64,000 nucleotides of DNA from positions 74,389 through 138,388 of the forward strand of contig CAYJLF010000004.1 in NCBI GenBank assembly GCA_964371055.1. Direction: 5' to 3'. Within the stretch, counting starts at the first letter, position 1; the number at the start of each line of letters is the position of its first letter. The position numbers and the translations under genes are program-made. Positions 58,470 to 64,000 of this stretch are shown piece after piece. Source of the DNA: an uncultured bacterium. GTDB taxonomy: Bacteria; Eisenbacteria; RBG-16-71-46; CAIMUX01. The notes beneath the pieces are model-generated. The model searched no databases. It saw only the letters and a program-made list of their open reading frames with translations, and was not told the origin of the DNA.

Positions 58470-59549
58470 TCAGGCCGCTTCGGCCTGCGTGCCGCGCTCG
58501 AGGAGCGGGGCGAAGGTCTCTTTCACGTTCGCGGTCAGGTACGCCTCCTGCGGCGTGATCGCGCCGTCCTTCACCATCTGCATCAGGACATTGTCGAGCA
58601 GCAGCATGCCATCTTTGCGTCCGGTCTGCATCAAAGTCGGGATCTGGAAGGTCTTCTTCTCGCGGATCATGGCGGCCACCGCCATGTTTCCGAAGAGCAC
58701 CTCCACCACCGGGACGCGTCCCTGTCCGTCGGCCCGTCGCACGAGGCGTTGGGCGACGACGCCGCGGAGCGATTCGGCGAGCATGGCGCGGATCTGCGCC
58801 TGCTTCTCGTCGGCGAAGGCATCGATGATCCGGTCGATCGTCTGGGCCGCGCTGGCCGTATGCAGGGTCCCCAGCACGAGCTGCCCGGTCTCCGCCGCCG
58901 TGATCGCAAGCTGCATCGTCTCGAGGTCCCGCATCTCGCCGACGAGCACGATGTTCGGATCCTCGCGCAGGGCCGACCGCAGCGCCGCGGAGAAACTGCG
59001 CGCGGAGCGGCCCACTTCCCTCTGGTTCACGAGGCAGTTCAGGTTGGGATGCACATACTCGACCGGATCCTCGATCGTGATGATGTGCTTTCGCTGCGTC
59101 TCGTTGATGTGGTGGAGCAAGGCCGCCAGCGTGGTGCTCTTCCCACTCCCCGGCGGCCCGGTGACGACCACCAGCCCCTTGCGGTACTCGGCGAACCGCC
59201 GGATCTGGTCCGGCAAGCCGAGTTGTTCGAGAGAGAAGATGCGGGTCGGCAGGAGGCGAAACGCGCCGGCGATGCCGCGGATCTGCTCGTAGAGGTTGCA
59301 GCGGACCCGGACCTCGCCCGCGACGTCGTAGGCGAAGTCGATGTCCTTGTCCCGTTCGAACTGAACCCGCTGTTCGGGAGCCATCATCTCGTAGAGGAGC
59401 TGCCGGGCCTGGTCGCCGGTCAGCTCGGGCGCTTCGATGGGCCGGATGTCGCCCTGGACACGGAGCATCGGAGGGGCGCCGGTCGAGATATGGAGATCCG
59501 ACGCGCCCTGCTCCTTGACCATTTTGAAGATTGCGTCGATCCGCGCCAA
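58470..59549 (-). CDS. pilT: Type IV pilus retraction ATPase
   Basis: ASDLH, GPPGSGKSTT, TIEDPVE, LREDPN, GEMRD, AAETG, GTLHT. Confidence 0.95.
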   Translation of the reverse strand: MARIDAIFKMVKEQGASDLHISTGAPPMLRVQGDIRPIEAPELTGDQARQLLYEMMAPEQRVQFERDKDIDFAYDVAGEVRVRCNLYEQIRGIAGAFRLLPTRIFSLEQLGLPDQIRRFAEYRKGLVVVTGPPGSGKSTTLAALLHHINETQRKHIITIEDPVEYVHPNLNCLVNQREVGRSARSFSAALRSALREDPNIVLVGEMRDLETMQLAITAAETGQLVLGTLHTASAAQTIDRIIDAFADEKQAQIRAMLAESLRGVVAQRLVRRADGQGRVPVVEVLFGNMAVAAMIREKKTFQIPTLMQTGRKDGMLLLDNVLMQMVKDGAITPQEAYLTANVKETFAPLLERGTQAEAA

Positions 59550-59705
59550 CCGGCTGTCCTCCCGGAGGTTAGTCGTCCCCTTGACTATCGGCCGAAGTCG
59601 GGGCGGACTGAACCGCGACGGAACAAGCAGTTCGCCCCGCCGGCGGAGGAATCCGGCGGGGCGATTCTGGCGCGCGGGGGAGCGGACCCGCGCCGGGAGG
59701 CCAGG

Positions 59706-60158
59706 CTACTCGAAGTCGTCGAAGCGGGAGAGCTGGACCACACGGCTCTGGAGGAAGCCGCCGACCACTTGGGCCCCCGCGCCGACCCACATCCCTGCCG
59801 CCGGGTTCCAGGTCCGACGGTCTGCGAAGTTGCCAGCGAGAGCGGAGAGCGTCGCCTTGGAGGCGAGGAGCAAACCTTGCGGCTCGATTTCGATGTGCCG
59901 GCCCGCGGCATCCAGATCGACCGTAAGCGTTACCGTCACCGGCTCTTGGAGAGCACCCGCGGGGATCGTGAAAGCGACGCCCGCGGTTTCCACGGAACCT
60001 CCGGCCGGGCCGATCTCCGCCGAGGCCCGGCTCACGGCCAGGAGGCTCGGCGCGACGCCGGAGTCTGTGGGTGCCAGGATCTGCGACGCATCTTCACCGC
60101 AGCCGGAGACCATCCCCGCCACGAGCACGCTGAGTAGGACGACGAAGGTACGAAGCAT
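59706..60158 (-). CDS. Small lipoprotein with a ZU5-like region
   Basis: GGAGG RBS, lipobox VSGC, IGPAGG...IPAGAL...IEPQGL. Confidence 0.75.
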   Translation of the reverse strand: MLRTFVVLLSVLVAGMVSGCGEDASQILAPTDSGVAPSLLAVSRASAEIGPAGGSVETAGVAFTIPAGALQEPVTVTLTVDLDAAGRHIEIEPQGLLLASKATLSALAGNFADRRTWNPAAGMWVGAGAQVVGGFLQSRVVQLSRFDDFE

Positions 60159-60180
60159 GGTTCCTCCCGCCTGGTGAAGT

Positions 60181-60200
60181 CTGTCAACACTGGGTGACAG
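60181..60200. promoter_or_regulatory. Palindromic operator-like site
   Basis: CTGTCA-N8-TGACAG. Confidence 0.5.
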
Positions 60201-60216
60201 TCAAGCGGGATGCCAA
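60201..60216 (-). promoter_or_regulatory. Putative sigma54 promoter of the lipoprotein gene
   Basis: TTGGCATC-CCGC-TTGA versus consensus TGGCACG-N4-TTGC. Confidence 0.55.
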
Positions 60217-60621
60217 GGCCGAGCCGGGGATGGACGGCGGAACGAGGGCGGGACGCACTGCGCTCCACCGTGTTGTGTAACAATGTGTTATGTGCTGTGC
60301 GATCGCGGCGGGAATCGCTCCGGGCCGCTCCTCGCGTGGCGGGGGCAACCCAACTCCCCTTTGTTCGCGGGAGAAACGACGCGCTGGAGCGGGGCTCCGG
60401 GTCGACGTCCACCCGGAACCGCTTGGAAAGAAGAGAGATGTCTGAGCTGGCCGAGCCGAGCCGGGATCGGCGGATTCGCCCACGAAACAAGGCCCCCCGG
60501 CGGGAGCCGGGGGGCCTCTGGGTCCCGCCGTCCGGCAACTCTCGAGGGGCGGATGGATGCCGGAACCTGGCCGGGAACCGTCACACTGGGTCGCCCGTCG
60601 GCGGGCTTCGGAAGATCAGCG

Positions 60622-60669
60622 GCCGGGACCGCGACCGGGGGGCTCTCCGTGACCCGATCGCGTCCCGGC
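60622..60669 (-). terminator. Long GC-rich hairpin immediately after the small ORF
   Basis: GCCGGGACGCGATCGGG...CCCGGTCGCGGTCCCGGC; no U tract. Confidence 0.55.
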
Positions 60670-60675
60670 TTTCCG

Positions 60676-60744
60676 CTACCAGCCAGCCCTGCCCTTGCCG
60701 AGCCAGATGATCGCGAAGACGAAGAGCGATTCGATGATCAACAT
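60676..60744 (-). CDS. 22-aa hydrophobic peptide MLIIESLFVFAIIWLGKGRAGW
   Basis: AGGAGG 6 nt before ATG, GC3-biased codons, upstream sigma54 motif, downstream hairpin. Confidence 0.7.
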   Translation of the reverse strand: MLIIESLFVFAIIWLGKGRAGW

Positions 60745-60811
60745 GAGACACCTCCTGGTTTCGCAACTGCCGCCCCAGCTTGCTGGGAGCGCTCCTGAGT
60801 CGGGGGTGGTA

Positions 60812-60829
60812 ATGCACTCGTCGTGCCAA
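60812..60829 (-). promoter_or_regulatory. Sigma54 (-24/-12) promoter
   Basis: TTGGCACG-ACGA-GTGCAT, one mismatch to consensus; AT-rich upstream region with IHF-like TAACGTATTG at 60866-60875. Confidence 0.75.
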
Positions 60830-61053
60830 GACCGTGGCGAGCTCACATTCCCGGCGCACTAACTCTAACGTATTGTAATATAGTCCATTATGAAGGTAGG
60901 GCCGTGCCGGTCCGCATGGACTCGAATCGCCAACCAGAGACGTCTTTGTCGCATGGACTTGTCACCAGAGTTCGATAGGCGCCTAACTCTCACTTGAGGA
61001 ACATGATACGTGATAGTCACATTTACACGACAATTGTCATGTCGTCGAGTCAC

Positions 61054-62871
61054 TCAGGAGCGCTTATTGTTGTTCGTCCCGCTCCGTCCCGGACGCTCGA
61101 GTCCGTGCTGCTTGATCAGGTTGTGCAGGTGCTGGCGGCTGATCGACAACTCCGCGGCGGCCCGGGTGATGTTCCACTCCCGGCGATCGAGCACTCCGGT
61201 CAGAAGTTCACGCACGAATCGCGTGGCCGCCTCGTCGAGCGAGGTCCCTTCCGGCGTGTGCAGGCCGATCCTCTCCGCCGGGATCTCAGGCAACTGCTCG
61301 CGGACCTGCGCCGCATCGAGCGACTCGCCCGCCGGGACGAGGGCCGCGGCCCCGAAGATGACCGAGCGCAACTGACGGACGTTGCCGGGCCACGATTGCC
61401 GCAAAAGGATGCTCCGGGCGCGCGGCGTGATGCCCTGGATCGGTCGCCGGGCGGCGCGCATCGCCTCCACGAAGAAGTGATCGATGAGCAGGCCCAGATC
61501 ATCTCCCCGCTCTCGCAGCGGCGGGAGGTCGACGCGGACCCCCGCCAGGCGGTAGAAGAGATCCTCCCGAAACTCGCGCCGGCCGATCATCTCCGGCAGG
61601 GAGCGAAGCGTCGCGCTCACGATCCGCACGTCGGTCTGGCGCATTCCCTCCGTCTCTCCGACCCGCCGGAACTCGCCGGTCTCGAGAAAGCGGAGGAGTT
61701 TGGCCTGCAACTCGAGCGAGAGGTCCCCGATCTCGTCGAGGAAGAGGGTTCCGCGGTGCGCCTCTTCCACCAGACCCGGCGTGTCCTTGACCGCGCCCGT
61801 GAACGATCCGCGGGCGTAACCGAACATCTGGCTCTCGAGCAGCGCCGCCGGGATCGCGGCGCAGTTGACCGGCACGAAGGGACCCTCCTGGCGCAGCCCT
61901 TCGTAGTGCAGCGCGCGCGCGACGAGTTCCTTTCCGGTACCGGTCTCTCCGCAGATCAGGACCGGGATGTCGCTGTCCTTGATCAGTCGCACCTTCGCAT
62001 AGAGCGCCTGCATGACCGGCGAGACCCCGACCATGCGCGCGAATCCCGAACTCCGGCGCACCGTGTCGCGGAGCCCCTCGTTCTCCCGCTCCAGCAGCAG
62101 CCGGGTCTCCTCCTCGCGGCGGTGCAGGCGGGCGTTGGCCAGCGCGACGGCGGCGTGCGAGGCGAACGCTTCCAGCACCTCCTGCGCCGCGGCATCCGAT
62201 CTCAGAGTGCGAGCGCGGCTGTCGAGATAGAGGACTCCGACGGCGGCTCCGCGTTCGCGCAGCGGCACGCAGAGCGCCCAGAGGATCCGAAGTTCGTGCA
62301 GGGAACGAGCGGTGCCGAGATCGGCCATCTCGGCCAGGTCGTCCAGGCTGCTGTAGGGAAGGAGCCGGTTCTGCCGCAGGCACTCCCGCGCCAGCGTCTC
62401 CGAAATGCGGGCCGTCTCCGGGTCGATCGAGGCGCCCCCCTGGTCCCGACCGACGACGACGCGAAGCCGGCTCTCCCCCTCCTGCAGCAGGAGCAAGCCG
62501 CGCTCCGAGCCGGCGATGTCGATCGCCGCGTCGAGGATCGCGCCGCAGAGTATCTCAGGATCGAGGATGCCCGACAGATCGCGCGAGAGCTTCAGGACCT
62601 GTCGCAGGCCGTCCAGCTCGGACGTGTCCCGGGCCTGGCCCGGCGCCTGGAGATCGGCCGACAGCAGCAGGCTCCGCTCCGCCGGCGTGGTCCCCTCGCG
62701 CCGGGCATCGATGGCCTGCCGCCGCAACCACGACTCCCGGGAGACCGTGGCGCCTTTCGCGGGAACGGCGTCGCTCTCCGGCGTGGGGTCCAGTCGTGGG
62801 CGCGCCGCGCGCGCCGCCCCCTCATCCGCCCCCGGCGCCAGGTCGCGATCATCTTGCATGGCCAGCTCCAT
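61054..62871 (-). CDS. GAF-domain sigma54-dependent transcriptional activator
   Basis: GAF region (SERGLL...LCVPL...GVLYLD), GETGTGKE, GSFTGA, FLDEIG, WPGNVRQL, Fis HTH. Confidence 0.93.
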   Translation of the reverse strand: MELAMQDDRDLAPGADEGAARAARPRLDPTPESDAVPAKGATVSRESWLRRQAIDARREGTTPAERSLLLSADLQAPGQARDTSELDGLRQVLKLSRDLSGILDPEILCGAILDAAIDIAGSERGLLLLQEGESRLRVVVGRDQGGASIDPETARISETLARECLRQNRLLPYSSLDDLAEMADLGTARSLHELRILWALCVPLRERGAAVGVLYLDSRARTLRSDAAAQEVLEAFASHAAVALANARLHRREEETRLLLERENEGLRDTVRRSSGFARMVGVSPVMQALYAKVRLIKDSDIPVLICGETGTGKELVARALHYEGLRQEGPFVPVNCAAIPAALLESQMFGYARGSFTGAVKDTPGLVEEAHRGTLFLDEIGDLSLELQAKLLRFLETGEFRRVGETEGMRQTDVRIVSATLRSLPEMIGRREFREDLFYRLAGVRVDLPPLRERGDDLGLLIDHFFVEAMRAARRPIQGITPRARSILLRQSWPGNVRQLRSVIFGAAALVPAGESLDAAQVREQLPEIPAERIGLHTPEGTSLDEAATRFVRELLTGVLDRREWNITRAAAELSISRQHLHNLIKQHGLERPGRSGTNNNKRS

Positions 62872-62909: not shown

Positions 62910-64000
62910 TCAGTCCTGTCCCAGATCATCAAGAAACTGCCGGATCGCCGGGCTCTCCAGGAAAAGAGAGGCGGGCGACTCATCGCCGAGCGACTCCACG
63001 ACTGCGGTGAGAACGGAACGGGCGGTCGCGTAGTGCTCCGCGGCCCGCCGCGGCGATCCCGAAAGTCGGAGAGCCTGCGCGAGACGCCAGTGGGCTCGCC
63101 AGGCCAGGAGCCAACGTTCCTGGGACTCGAGCAGCGTCACCGCCCGCTGCAGCCCCGCGGCGGCCTCATCGGTCCTCCCCGCCAGCAACGATCCCTCGCC
63201 GCCGGCGAGAGCCCGCAGACTCGCCGTCAAGGGGGAGATCGGTCCACCGGTGTGATCGAACTCGCTCAGCAACGCCTGGAGTCGATCGCTCTCCCCGGCC
63301 TCCGCCTCGCGCAGCGCCCAGTGCAGCAGGCTCTCCATGGCGTCTTCGCGGCCGCCGGTGGCGGTGAAGCGATCGACGACCTGACGGAAGGCGGCGCGCG
63401 CCTCGGCGGGCCGGCCGAGACCGGCGAGCGCCTCCGCGCGGGTCGCCTCGACCAAGAGGCGGTACCGCGGCACCGCATCGCCGAAACGTTCGAGGACCGC
63501 GTCGGCCTCCCGCAATCCCCGTTCGAGCTGCCCGGAGCGCACGAGGAGGTGGCTGCGATGCACCCCGACCCGGGCCAGCTCCCGCACTTCCCCCGAGAGC
63601 TGGCAGACGCCGGCCAGGTCGTGGTCGACCCGGACCGCACGCCCCAGCCATCCGCGCTCGATCAGAATCAGTCCGAGGTTGTACAGACTGACCGCGGCGC
63701 GATTCCAGACGCCGCGCGTCAGCCAGAATCCGGCGAGGTCCTCCAGCCAGGCCTGGCTTTGCCGCAGGCGTCCTTCCTGGAAGGCGATGCCGCAGAGCAG
63801 GGTCGGGACCACGCCTCGATGCGTGCGGAGCTCCGTCCGATGCACCAGATCCTCGAGCGGCGCCATGGCCGCGCGGGCCGCCTCGATCTCGCCCCGCTGG
63901 AAGCGGGCCAGGCCGAGTCCGTGCAGCGCATAGATGCGGTCCAGCAACGGGAGTTCCTCGGCCCGCGAGGCCGGGACCATCCACCACCGCATCGCCTCTT
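62910..64000 (-). CDS. TPR-repeat protein, C-terminal part (5' end outside the window)
   Basis: Successive TPR-like helices (ALHGLG, SLYNLG, WRAHWRLA); frame open to the window edge. Confidence 0.8.
   Translation of the reverse strand, partial: EAMRWWMVPASRAEELPLLDRIYALHGLGLARFQRGEIEAARAAMAPLEDLVHRTELRTHRGVVPTLLCGIAFQEGRLRQSQAWLEDLAGFWLTRGVWNRAAVSLYNLGLILIERGWLGRAVRVDHDLAGVCQLSGEVRELARVGVHRSHLLVRSGQLERGLREADAVLERFGDAVPRYRLLVEATRAEALAGLGRPAEARAAFRQVVDRFTATGGREDAMESLLHWALREAEAGESDRLQALLSEFDHTGGPISPLTASLRALAGGEGSLLAGRTDEAAAGLQRAVTLLESQERWLLAWRAHWRLAQALRLSGSPRRAAEHYATARSVLTAVVESLGDESPASLFLESPAIRQFLDDLGQD

Follow-up and report, generated by a model that had tools for sequence, protein, structure and literature searches.

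A 64,000-nucleotide stretch of DNA from an uncultured bacterium of the Eisenbacteria (contig CAYJLF010000004.1 of assembly GCA_964371055.1), called here the window, carries on its minus strand a 22-codon open reading frame (ORF) that encodes the peptide MLIIESLFVFAIIWLGKGRAGW and is very probably a real gene that annotation has missed. On the sequence comparisons described below, this ORF is the first described member of a conserved family of micro-proteins, apparently controlled by sigma-54 and tied to a module of a transcription activator and a protein kinase. The gene was judged to be genuine because the peptide is conserved at the amino acid level, because its genomic position is kept in relatives, and because contigs from RNA libraries match it exactly. 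An earlier note, made from the window alone, had proposed an unannotated micropeptide with its own expression cassette, and this claim stood: the ORF, its Shine-Dalgarno (SD) sequence, a promoter and the accompanying hairpins were all located (Table 1), and the peptide was found conserved in related genomes.

A family of short hydrophobic peptides ending in GRAGW

The ORF extends from an ATG at 60744-60742 to a TAG at 60678-60676, and the AGGAGG that the earlier note had described as well spaced reads from 60756 to 60751, ending 6 nt ahead of the start codon. The G+C content at its first, second and third codon positions (GC1/GC2/GC3) is 0.43/0.43/0.90. Neither tblastn nor a DNA search detected a paralogue of the peptide gene in its own genome, where it is single copy. 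A 22-codon ORF is meaningless per se, and the weight of the case is placed on the conservation of the predicted peptide across genera.

At the DNA level, searches of 40 relatives yielded nothing beyond matches of 18-50 nt at the level of chance, and the family is visible only through synteny and a peptide profile. It was discovered by taking the best matches to the neighboring activator in 40 relatives and reading the sequence downstream of them. Several of these loci showed a sigma-54 promoter 213-357 nt after the activator stop, followed by an SD sequence and a short ORF ending in GRAGW and a stop codon. The peptide profile was run against the 206 genomes of the phylum (the class comprises the identical set), and the fetched loci were also scanned for the last five residues of the window peptide plus a stop; the class-wide set includes one unpublished genome (G072), on which no claim depends. 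The earlier note had pointed to frame conservation in related genomes as a check, and this conservation was found, although the DNA search was blind to it: synteny and profile gave 20 family genes ending in GRAGW, distributed over 17 of the 206 genomes. By taxonomic family, the gene is present in 8/13 genomes of f1 (that of the window included), 5/6 of f3, 1/1 of f4, 1/1 of f7, 1/2 of f8 and 1/3 of f11. No gene was found in f2 (0/15), f18 (0/41) or f17 (0/89), having in mind that incomplete genomes prove no absence. A weak match in f17 lay inside a 588-residue open frame, without GRAGW and a stop, and was dropped as a chance hit. As a specificity control, a GRAGW-type ORF was looked for in 311 kb of activator loci from other phyla, 80 loci among the matches listed, and none carries it; the contig scan by activator alignment that supplied them gave, among the matches listed, these unrelated activators and no orthologues.

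Two genomes of one genus carry tandem pairs of the gene, and another genome has two copies 0.5 kb apart. The tandem duplication was seen at L117 (6334-6564) and L118 (6924-7152), each pair behind a single sigma-54-like promoter.

The family peptides have 19-26 residues and consist of a variable hydrophobic body of 13-20 residues and an invariant GRAGW. In the alignment of the 20 homologues (A2), M1 and GRAGW are the sole invariant residues, and the identity of the homologues to the window peptide is 27-48%. The bodies show a mean Kyte-Doolittle hydropathy of 1.9-2.7, with 0-2 charged residues and a hydrophobic run of about 14-19 residues. The stop codon directly follows the tryptophan in 18/20 genes, and the other two carry 1-2 extra residues (codon after GRAGW: TAG in 9, TAA in 7, TGA in 2 and a sense codon in 2). 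The 15-nt stretch encoding GRAGW exists in 11 versions among the 20 genes, and all the differences are synonymous (third positions, and CGN/AGG for arginine). When 18 transcripts were aligned as DNA, the -24/-12 region, the SD/ATG and the GRAGW codons were the sole parts to match up, the untranslated regions (UTRs) being unalignable. With only synonymous changes in the GRAGW codons and no conservation of the UTRs, it is the peptide on which selection acts.

The start of the frame is also well defined. All 20 genes begin with ATG, AGGAGG is matched 6/6 in 16 of them, at no more than 16 nt from the start, and 5/6 in the other four, and in 7/20 a directly upstream in-frame stop excludes any longer ORF; the pooled GC1/GC2/GC3 of the family is 0.61/0.48/0.74. 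The SD, the ATG and the conservation at codon level argue for translation. The -24 pentamer of the window promoter was found 50-120 nt before the ATG in 15/20 genes, compared with 7% of random 120-nt windows from the same loci, and a -12 GC at the right spacing was found in 9/20, compared with a background of 1%.

Public protein sets contain only N-terminally over-extended versions of the ORF, named "hypothetical protein" or left unnamed. A search of a collection of 5.8 billion proteins, for which the profile was led by a 56-residue over-extended ORF (window 60679-60846), gave nine proteins (P0001-P0009), all of them ending in GRAGW and without Pfam domains. These calls, of 43-88 residues, begin at an upstream GTG, ATG or TTG inside the promoter or the 5' UTR, in such a way that the public gene calls at the locus are wrong, with their N-termini stretched into the promoter and the 5' UTR, and the true product is their final 19-26 residues. 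No known family was matched: no NCBIfam family was hit by any of the 10 members of sufficient length for the scan, the best Pfam hit had an E value of 0.013, far under the cut-offs, and the best hit in a PDB profile search had an E value of 1.4. The PDB search also gave no support to a supposed likeness of the tail to small photosynthetic and respiratory subunits. A description of the family was not found in the literature, where the listed full-text matches to the motif concerned vertebrate signal peptides and antibodies, and where a search on sigma-54, small proteins, enhancer-binding proteins and hydrophobic peptides produced only an unrelated review.

Promoter, transcript and RNA libraries

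The earlier note had placed a promoter about 70 nt upstream of the start codon, and it was indeed located there: TGGCACGACGAGTGCA sits 69 nt upstream of the ATG and is unique in the window, in which 0.03 matches to the -24/-12 pattern were expected (100 shuffles). The whole 5.38-Mb genome has four matches to this pattern, and it encodes two rpoN genes with Sigma54_DBD above the cut-off (contigs C8:103706-104173 and C9:120131-120598). The other three strict matches in the genome are at C5:34403, C26:38923 and C9:76480; two of these three stand upstream of ORFs, one of 270 residues with a signal-like N-terminus and the other of 239 residues and membrane-like, and the third is inside a coding frame.

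Taking the GC at -12 as reference, transcription should start around 60802, and its likely 3' end is the terminator at 60518-60482, which has a G+C stem of about 13 bp followed by UUGUUUCGU, giving a predicted transcript of about 320 nt. Both hairpins of the earlier note, the small one in the 5' UTR and the long one after the ORF, appear in the fold of 60802-60482, which has a z-score of -2.16 and in which the SD is partly paired. The small 5' UTR hairpin has a counterpart in other loci, where hairpins of differing sequence were also seen by eye between the promoter and the SD. The terminator hairpin is unchanged when any part of the ORF is forced to be single-stranded. No Rfam family reached its threshold (the best hit had 20 bits, and the gathering score was 40). 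Through a perfect inverted repeat of 13 nt (60788-60800/61052-61064), the 5' end of the transcript is complementary to the stop-codon region of the activator; as a family feature, this complementarity was rejected, being absent from the 10 other syntenic loci.

Upstream of the promoter, the spacer that separates it from the activator gene is A+T-rich (GC of 0.545, compared with 0.68 genome-wide), and the IHF-like site of the earlier note amounts to no more than this A+T-rich DNA, with a putative partial match to the IHF consensus by eye. The two direct repeats at 60913..60959 fall 111-157 nt upstream of the predicted transcription start and are candidate activator-binding sites. Palindromes of the TGTC/GACA type were seen by eye at 61025-61042 in the window and just past the activator stop in most syntenic loci, and they are candidate binding sites, nothing more.

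Of the 20 public runs that contain part of 59600-62000, three are RNA libraries; to look for expression, these three and one DNA run from a different study were aligned to the region. Two whole metatranscriptome contigs, from runs X12 and X19 of a single study, lie wholly inside the predicted transcript without any difference: record 2 of X12 (257 nt, 60525-60781) and record 9 of X19 (236 nt, 60548-60783). Because these exact contigs run through position 60620, the RNA extends beyond it, and the transcript end that the earlier note had put there is off by about 100-135 nt, with the contigs continuing to 60525 and 60548. The long hairpin after the stop codon, which the contigs also cover, is therefore not where the transcript ends. 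In the same runs, no RNA contig was found over 60410-60490 or 60815-61300, and uncovered parts were not counted as silence. The remaining pieces had differences (8 in 273 nt in X12, in the lipoprotein gene described below) or were short AAA+ bits from other organisms. These contigs are a hint of expression, short of proof.

The region 60509-60783 showed no substitutions, either in the DNA run of the other study, which has a 1-nt insertion behind 60617, or in the RNA runs. The invariance of the whole transcript among close strains hints at a role at the RNA level in addition to that of the peptide, and it may come from a constraint on the RNA or from a mixture of strains.

Neighboring genes and the activator-kinase module

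The gene upstream encodes a sigma-54 enhancer-binding protein in which Pfam recognized Sigma54_activat (E 3.7e-63), GAF_2 (E 2.2e-12) and HTH_8 (E 4.3e-5). The distance from its stop codon to the promoter is 225 nt, and this GAF-type activator is the likely activator of the micro-protein promoter. It is preceded by a Ser/Thr protein kinase whose part inside the window matches TPR families; across the whole ORF, Pkinase covers residues 84-314 and TPR_MalT/TPR_2 residues 881-1029. When the peptide was modelled in complex with the TPR region (residues 640-1183) of the kinase, the score was 0.01, against a mark of 0.32; this gives no verdict and was not used as evidence.

The peptide gene is directly downstream of the orthologous activator in 11 genomes (G000, that of the window, and G003, G002, G011, G014, G017, G019, G021, G023, G015 and G037), with 368-558 nt between the activator stop and the peptide stop (368-451 nt in 10 of them), and the full-length activator orthologues of the relatives are 36-56% identical. 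A kinase homologue was found beside this activator-peptide pair in 11/11, before the activator in some and after the peptide gene in others (Pfam on 3). In the related loci, only genes matching the window proteins and selected ORFs were annotated. At the activator locus of G006 (L034), TGGCA sigma-54-like elements were seen by eye 150-330 nt past the activator stop, with no SD-led hydrophobic ORF; the peptide gene of this genome may have been lost or replaced.

Downstream of the peptide gene, on the same strand, there is a lipoprotein-like gene (MLRTFVVLLSVLVAGMVSGC...) without a Pfam match, followed by pilT and a DUF4388 gene. Atlas feature matches to this protein score 0.96 and include a ZU5 cluster, and similar Atlas clusters are commonest in Candidatus Eiseniibacteriota and Gemmatimonadota. 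A lipoprotein-like gene lies 0.35-0.52 kb after the peptide gene in G000, G014, G017, G021 and G015, with partial matches in G019 and G023; tblastn detected homologues 0.4-0.5 kb downstream in G014, G019 and G017, and in G021 and G015 the ORFs at this position are lipoprotein-like. The lipoprotein-like gene may share a regulon with the peptide gene.

Table 1. Features of the micro-protein locus and of its neighborhood (window coordinates)
Feature	Position	Strand	Basis
Micro-protein gene, 22 sense codons and TAG, product MLIIESLFVFAIIWLGKGRAGW	60676..60744	-	ORF reading
Shine-Dalgarno AGGAGG	60751..60756	-	spacing to ATG 6 nt
Putative sigma-54 promoter TGGCACGACGAGTGCA, -24 GG 60827/60826, -12 GC 60815/60814	60813..60828	-	pattern match
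Small 5' UTR hairpin, 5-bp stem, 4-nt loop, CCCAG-CAAG-CUGGG	60774..60787	-	minimum free energy and centroid fold
Long G+C-rich hairpin right after the stop codon	~60622..60668	-	fold of 60802-60482
Predicted intrinsic terminator, ~13-bp G+C stem, then UUGUUUCGU	60482..60518	-	terminator scan and fold
Two exact 10-nt direct repeats, 37 nt apart	60913-60922 and 60950-60959	.	repeat search
Span covered by two whole metatranscriptome contigs, 100% identity	60525..60783	predicted strand -, contigs unstranded	X12, X19
Sigma-54 enhancer-binding protein, 605 aa, GAF, AAA+ Sigma54_activat and HTH_8	61054..62871	-	Pfam
Ser/Thr protein kinase, 1183 residues, C-terminal TPR region, 3' part in window	62910..64000 (runs past window end)	-	Pfam
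Lipoprotein-like gene, 150 residues, MLRTFVVLLSVLVAGMVSGC..., possibly ZU5-like	59706..60158	-	Atlas features

Proposed function and rival explanations

We modestly favor, as a whole statement, that the gene is inducible and encodes a membrane micro-protein which makes contact with a conserved partner through its GRAGW tail. The neighboring activator, perhaps controlled by the kinase, would bind the repeats 110-220 nt upstream and open the sigma-54 promoter on a signal sensed by activator and kinase, so that a monocistronic mRNA ending at the terminator would be made and translated, and the peptide would insert into the inner membrane as one short helix. Its sole basic residues, a single arginine plus a lysine in some members, would leave the GRAGW tail on the cytoplasmic face, where it would contact a conserved partner, this being either a component of the adjacent signalling module, in a feedback, or a membrane complex. 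A tail that stays invariant while the helix before it varies freely implies a single conserved contact, and an effector or feedback role in signalling is favored because the neighbors are signalling proteins in nearly every context. Among the functions that the earlier note had left open, the single-pass membrane micro-protein fits best, given the hydrophobic body and the one basic residue near the C-terminus; its type I toxin fits poorly, and its pre-peptide with a C-terminal signal met the difficulties described below.

Small single-helix membrane proteins of the AcrZ, KdpF, MgtS and YohP kind are the nearest comparison. In the available text of PMC12648545, PMC11539335 and PMC12719787 they have less than 50 residues and one hydrophobic helix, and they are often stress-induced and missed by annotation; the GRAGW peptides, of 19-26 residues, were likewise missed by annotation and would form one such helix. 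The GRAGW family differs from them in having no sequence relation to Pfam, NCBIfam or any solved chain, in being among the shortest, with its invariant C-terminal pentapeptide, and in the sigma-54 promoter that its gene has of its own beside a dedicated activator-kinase pair.

Several observations weigh against the proposed function. In at least four genomes (G004, G006, G007 and G040) a strong activator match was found without a peptide gene, and G001 (83% complete) also lacks one. Six genomes have the peptide gene apart from the orthologous activator, with an ECF sigma gene, an HD-GYP gene or other genes as its neighbors. The tandem pairs of G010 and G012 stand ahead of an ECF sigma gene and a 1000-residue VWA/YfbK_C gene, and the orthologous activator of these two genomes is followed directly by the kinase gene; in G045 an HD-GYP/MASE9 gene is downstream; in G009 a different, divergent activator, with TPR repeats in place of GAF, lies 0.9 kb from the peptide gene; and in G041 another activator is about 1.8 kb downstream. 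A recognizable -24 element is missing in 5/20 genes, and two of these stand second in a tandem pair. With 14 residues in the 19-residue member, the hydrophobic run is rather short to cross a bilayer. The RNA contigs carry no strand information and come from two runs of a single study, with DNA carry-over possible, and the DNA run X5 also has a short contig here. The transcript, UTRs included, is invariant between close strains, and the flanking contigs of the same runs differ by 1.4-6.7%. Finally, the translation, the membrane location and the partner of the peptide are what we infer from sequence.

A bolder reading, which we consider unlikely, is that the micro-protein is the dedicated output of a module of kinase-TPR, GAF activator and peptide, and that its GRAGW tail is also the input of that module, read by the TPR of the kinase. 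The tail would be membrane-anchored or released, and the peptide would form a feedback or a cell-to-cell circuit in a diderm phylum.

Close to this is the reading of the peptide as the precursor of a signal, which we hold to be distinctly unlikely. The hydrophobic body would serve as an export or insertion leader, and a C-terminal product containing GRAGW would be released, and the activator or the TPR region of the kinase would sense it, closing an auto-induction loop on its own sigma-54 promoter. Pheromones usually diversify, and against this reading the tail is invariant across at least six families though the activators are only 36-56% identical. In the SHP/Rgg and Phr/Rap systems the peptide gene is beside a transcription regulator that probably drives its promoter, and the GRAGW locus has the same arrangement, with a TPR protein in the module as in RRNPP systems. 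The size and shape of the family peptides (19-26 residues, hydrophobic body, conserved C-terminal end) are typical of precursors, a transcription activator adjoins in 13/17 genomes and a TPR-bearing protein in 12/17, the predicted promoter of the gene would depend on that activator class, and the non-syntenic neighbors are also signalling genes (ECF sigma; HD-GYP with MASE9). The layout of a hydrophobic precursor of about 20 residues with a conserved C-terminal end that is likely active is shared with these Firmicutes systems, according to the available portions of PMC3150281, PMC5167397 and 10.1101/2020.04.30.069369. By contrast, the regulators of the GRAGW locus are GAF + Sigma54_activat + HTH_8 and Pkinase + TPR proteins, and not Rgg or RRNPP receptors; no exporter, peptidase or oligopeptide permease gene was seen nearby in the stretches examined, in which selected ORFs were annotated; the N-region has no positive charge, unlike Sec signal peptides; and the host belongs to a high-G+C uncultured lineage and is not a Firmicute.

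We regard as improbable that the product is a stress-induced, membrane-active effector similar to toxins (of the TisB/Ibs or YohP kind) that, once induced, disturbs the membrane potential and reduces growth. A very short hydrophobic peptide and a structured mRNA are also found in type I toxins of the Ibs/TisB kind, and in length and hydrophobicity the peptide is similar to the smallest membrane toxins. Its regulation appears to be tight, with an inducible promoter and the SD partly paired in the predicted fold, and the available text of PMC12719787 describes small membrane proteins by which metabolism is silenced under stress. The GRAGW gene differs from such toxins in being single copy in its genome and sigma-54-driven, in its synteny, which is conserved across families and neither patchy nor strain-specific, and in its invariant soluble pentapeptide, which would be superfluous for nonspecific membrane damage. 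The antisense RNA that the earlier note had suggested looking for was not indicated: the scan of both strands from 59500 to 61500 gave no sigma-70-like promoter, Rfam gave no match to an antitoxin RNA, and the RNA contigs are unstranded.

The similarity of the tail to arrest motifs raises a further alternative, quite improbable in our view, in which the nascent ...RAG-W-stop would stall the ribosome as a cis-acting leader and control read-through to the downstream gene. SecM/RAPP-like (RQH) arrest peptides share an R-A-G core near the C-terminus and a poorly conserved hydrophobic N-terminal part (PMC10987492, PMC10951233 and PMC10951299, as far as their available text goes), and the invariant R-A-G resembles the R-A-G-P motif of that family (PMC10987492). 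The stop codon immediately follows the motif in 18/20 genes, most loci have, 70-520 nt further downstream, same-strand genes that belong to varied families, and the entire peptide would be inside the exit tunnel at termination. However, the proline of RAGP/RAPP is missing, with W in its place (GRAGW in 20/20), and this proline is essential in the available text of PMC10987492, where P91A abolishes the arrest of YwcI. The same text states that monitoring substrates require a spacer of more than 30 residues, and the whole GRAGW peptide has 19-26. Terminator-like hairpins follow the ORF in 10/17 genomes (crude scan), and the window terminator persists under masking of any part of the ORF, which gave no support to a translation-coupled attenuator. 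Moreover, the genes downstream belong to no common family (lipoprotein, kinase, ECF sigma, HD-GYP and others, none of them sec/yidC), tandem copies exist, and the conserved hydrophobicity of the variable body would be unexpected for contacts with the tunnel. In all, the arrest leader, the pheromone precursor and the type I toxin are less likely than the membrane micro-protein.

Qrr beside LuxO, CrcZ beside CbrB and GlmY beside GlrR are non-coding sigma-54 RNAs conserved in sequence and structure, and the GRAGW locus resembles them in that a short, apparently sigma-54-dependent transcript, ended by a terminator of its own, is encoded right next to an activator gene, with the difference that the conserved element here is the coding frame. 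That the locus acts chiefly as such a regulatory RNA, its transcript working by base-pairing or protein titration and the ORF being secondary, is consistent with the short structured transcript with promoter and terminator of its own, its fold z-score, the 230-257 nt, UTRs included, that are identical in the runs while neighboring contigs differ, and the 13-nt complement to the activator stop-codon region, but this is very improbable given that between genera only the promoter, the SD/ATG and the GRAGW codons are conserved with unalignable UTRs, that the complementarity is absent from the other syntenic loci, that no Rfam family reached threshold, and that third positions vary with zero amino acid change, which points to selection on the peptide.

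Proteins of about 20 residues fall under the cut-offs of annotation, and to our knowledge conserved families of this size outside model organisms are almost unknown. Having a complete context, with a sigma-54 promoter, a probable activator and a kinase, the regulation of the GRAGW gene can be tested in a heterologous host despite the organisms being uncultured, and finding the contact of the tail could show how the kinase-activator pair of this phylum talks to the membrane. If the boldest reading were true, in which the tail is also read by the kinase, it would mean a new kind of peptide signalling, a circuit built from parts unrelated to the peptide-sensing systems of Gram-positive bacteria.

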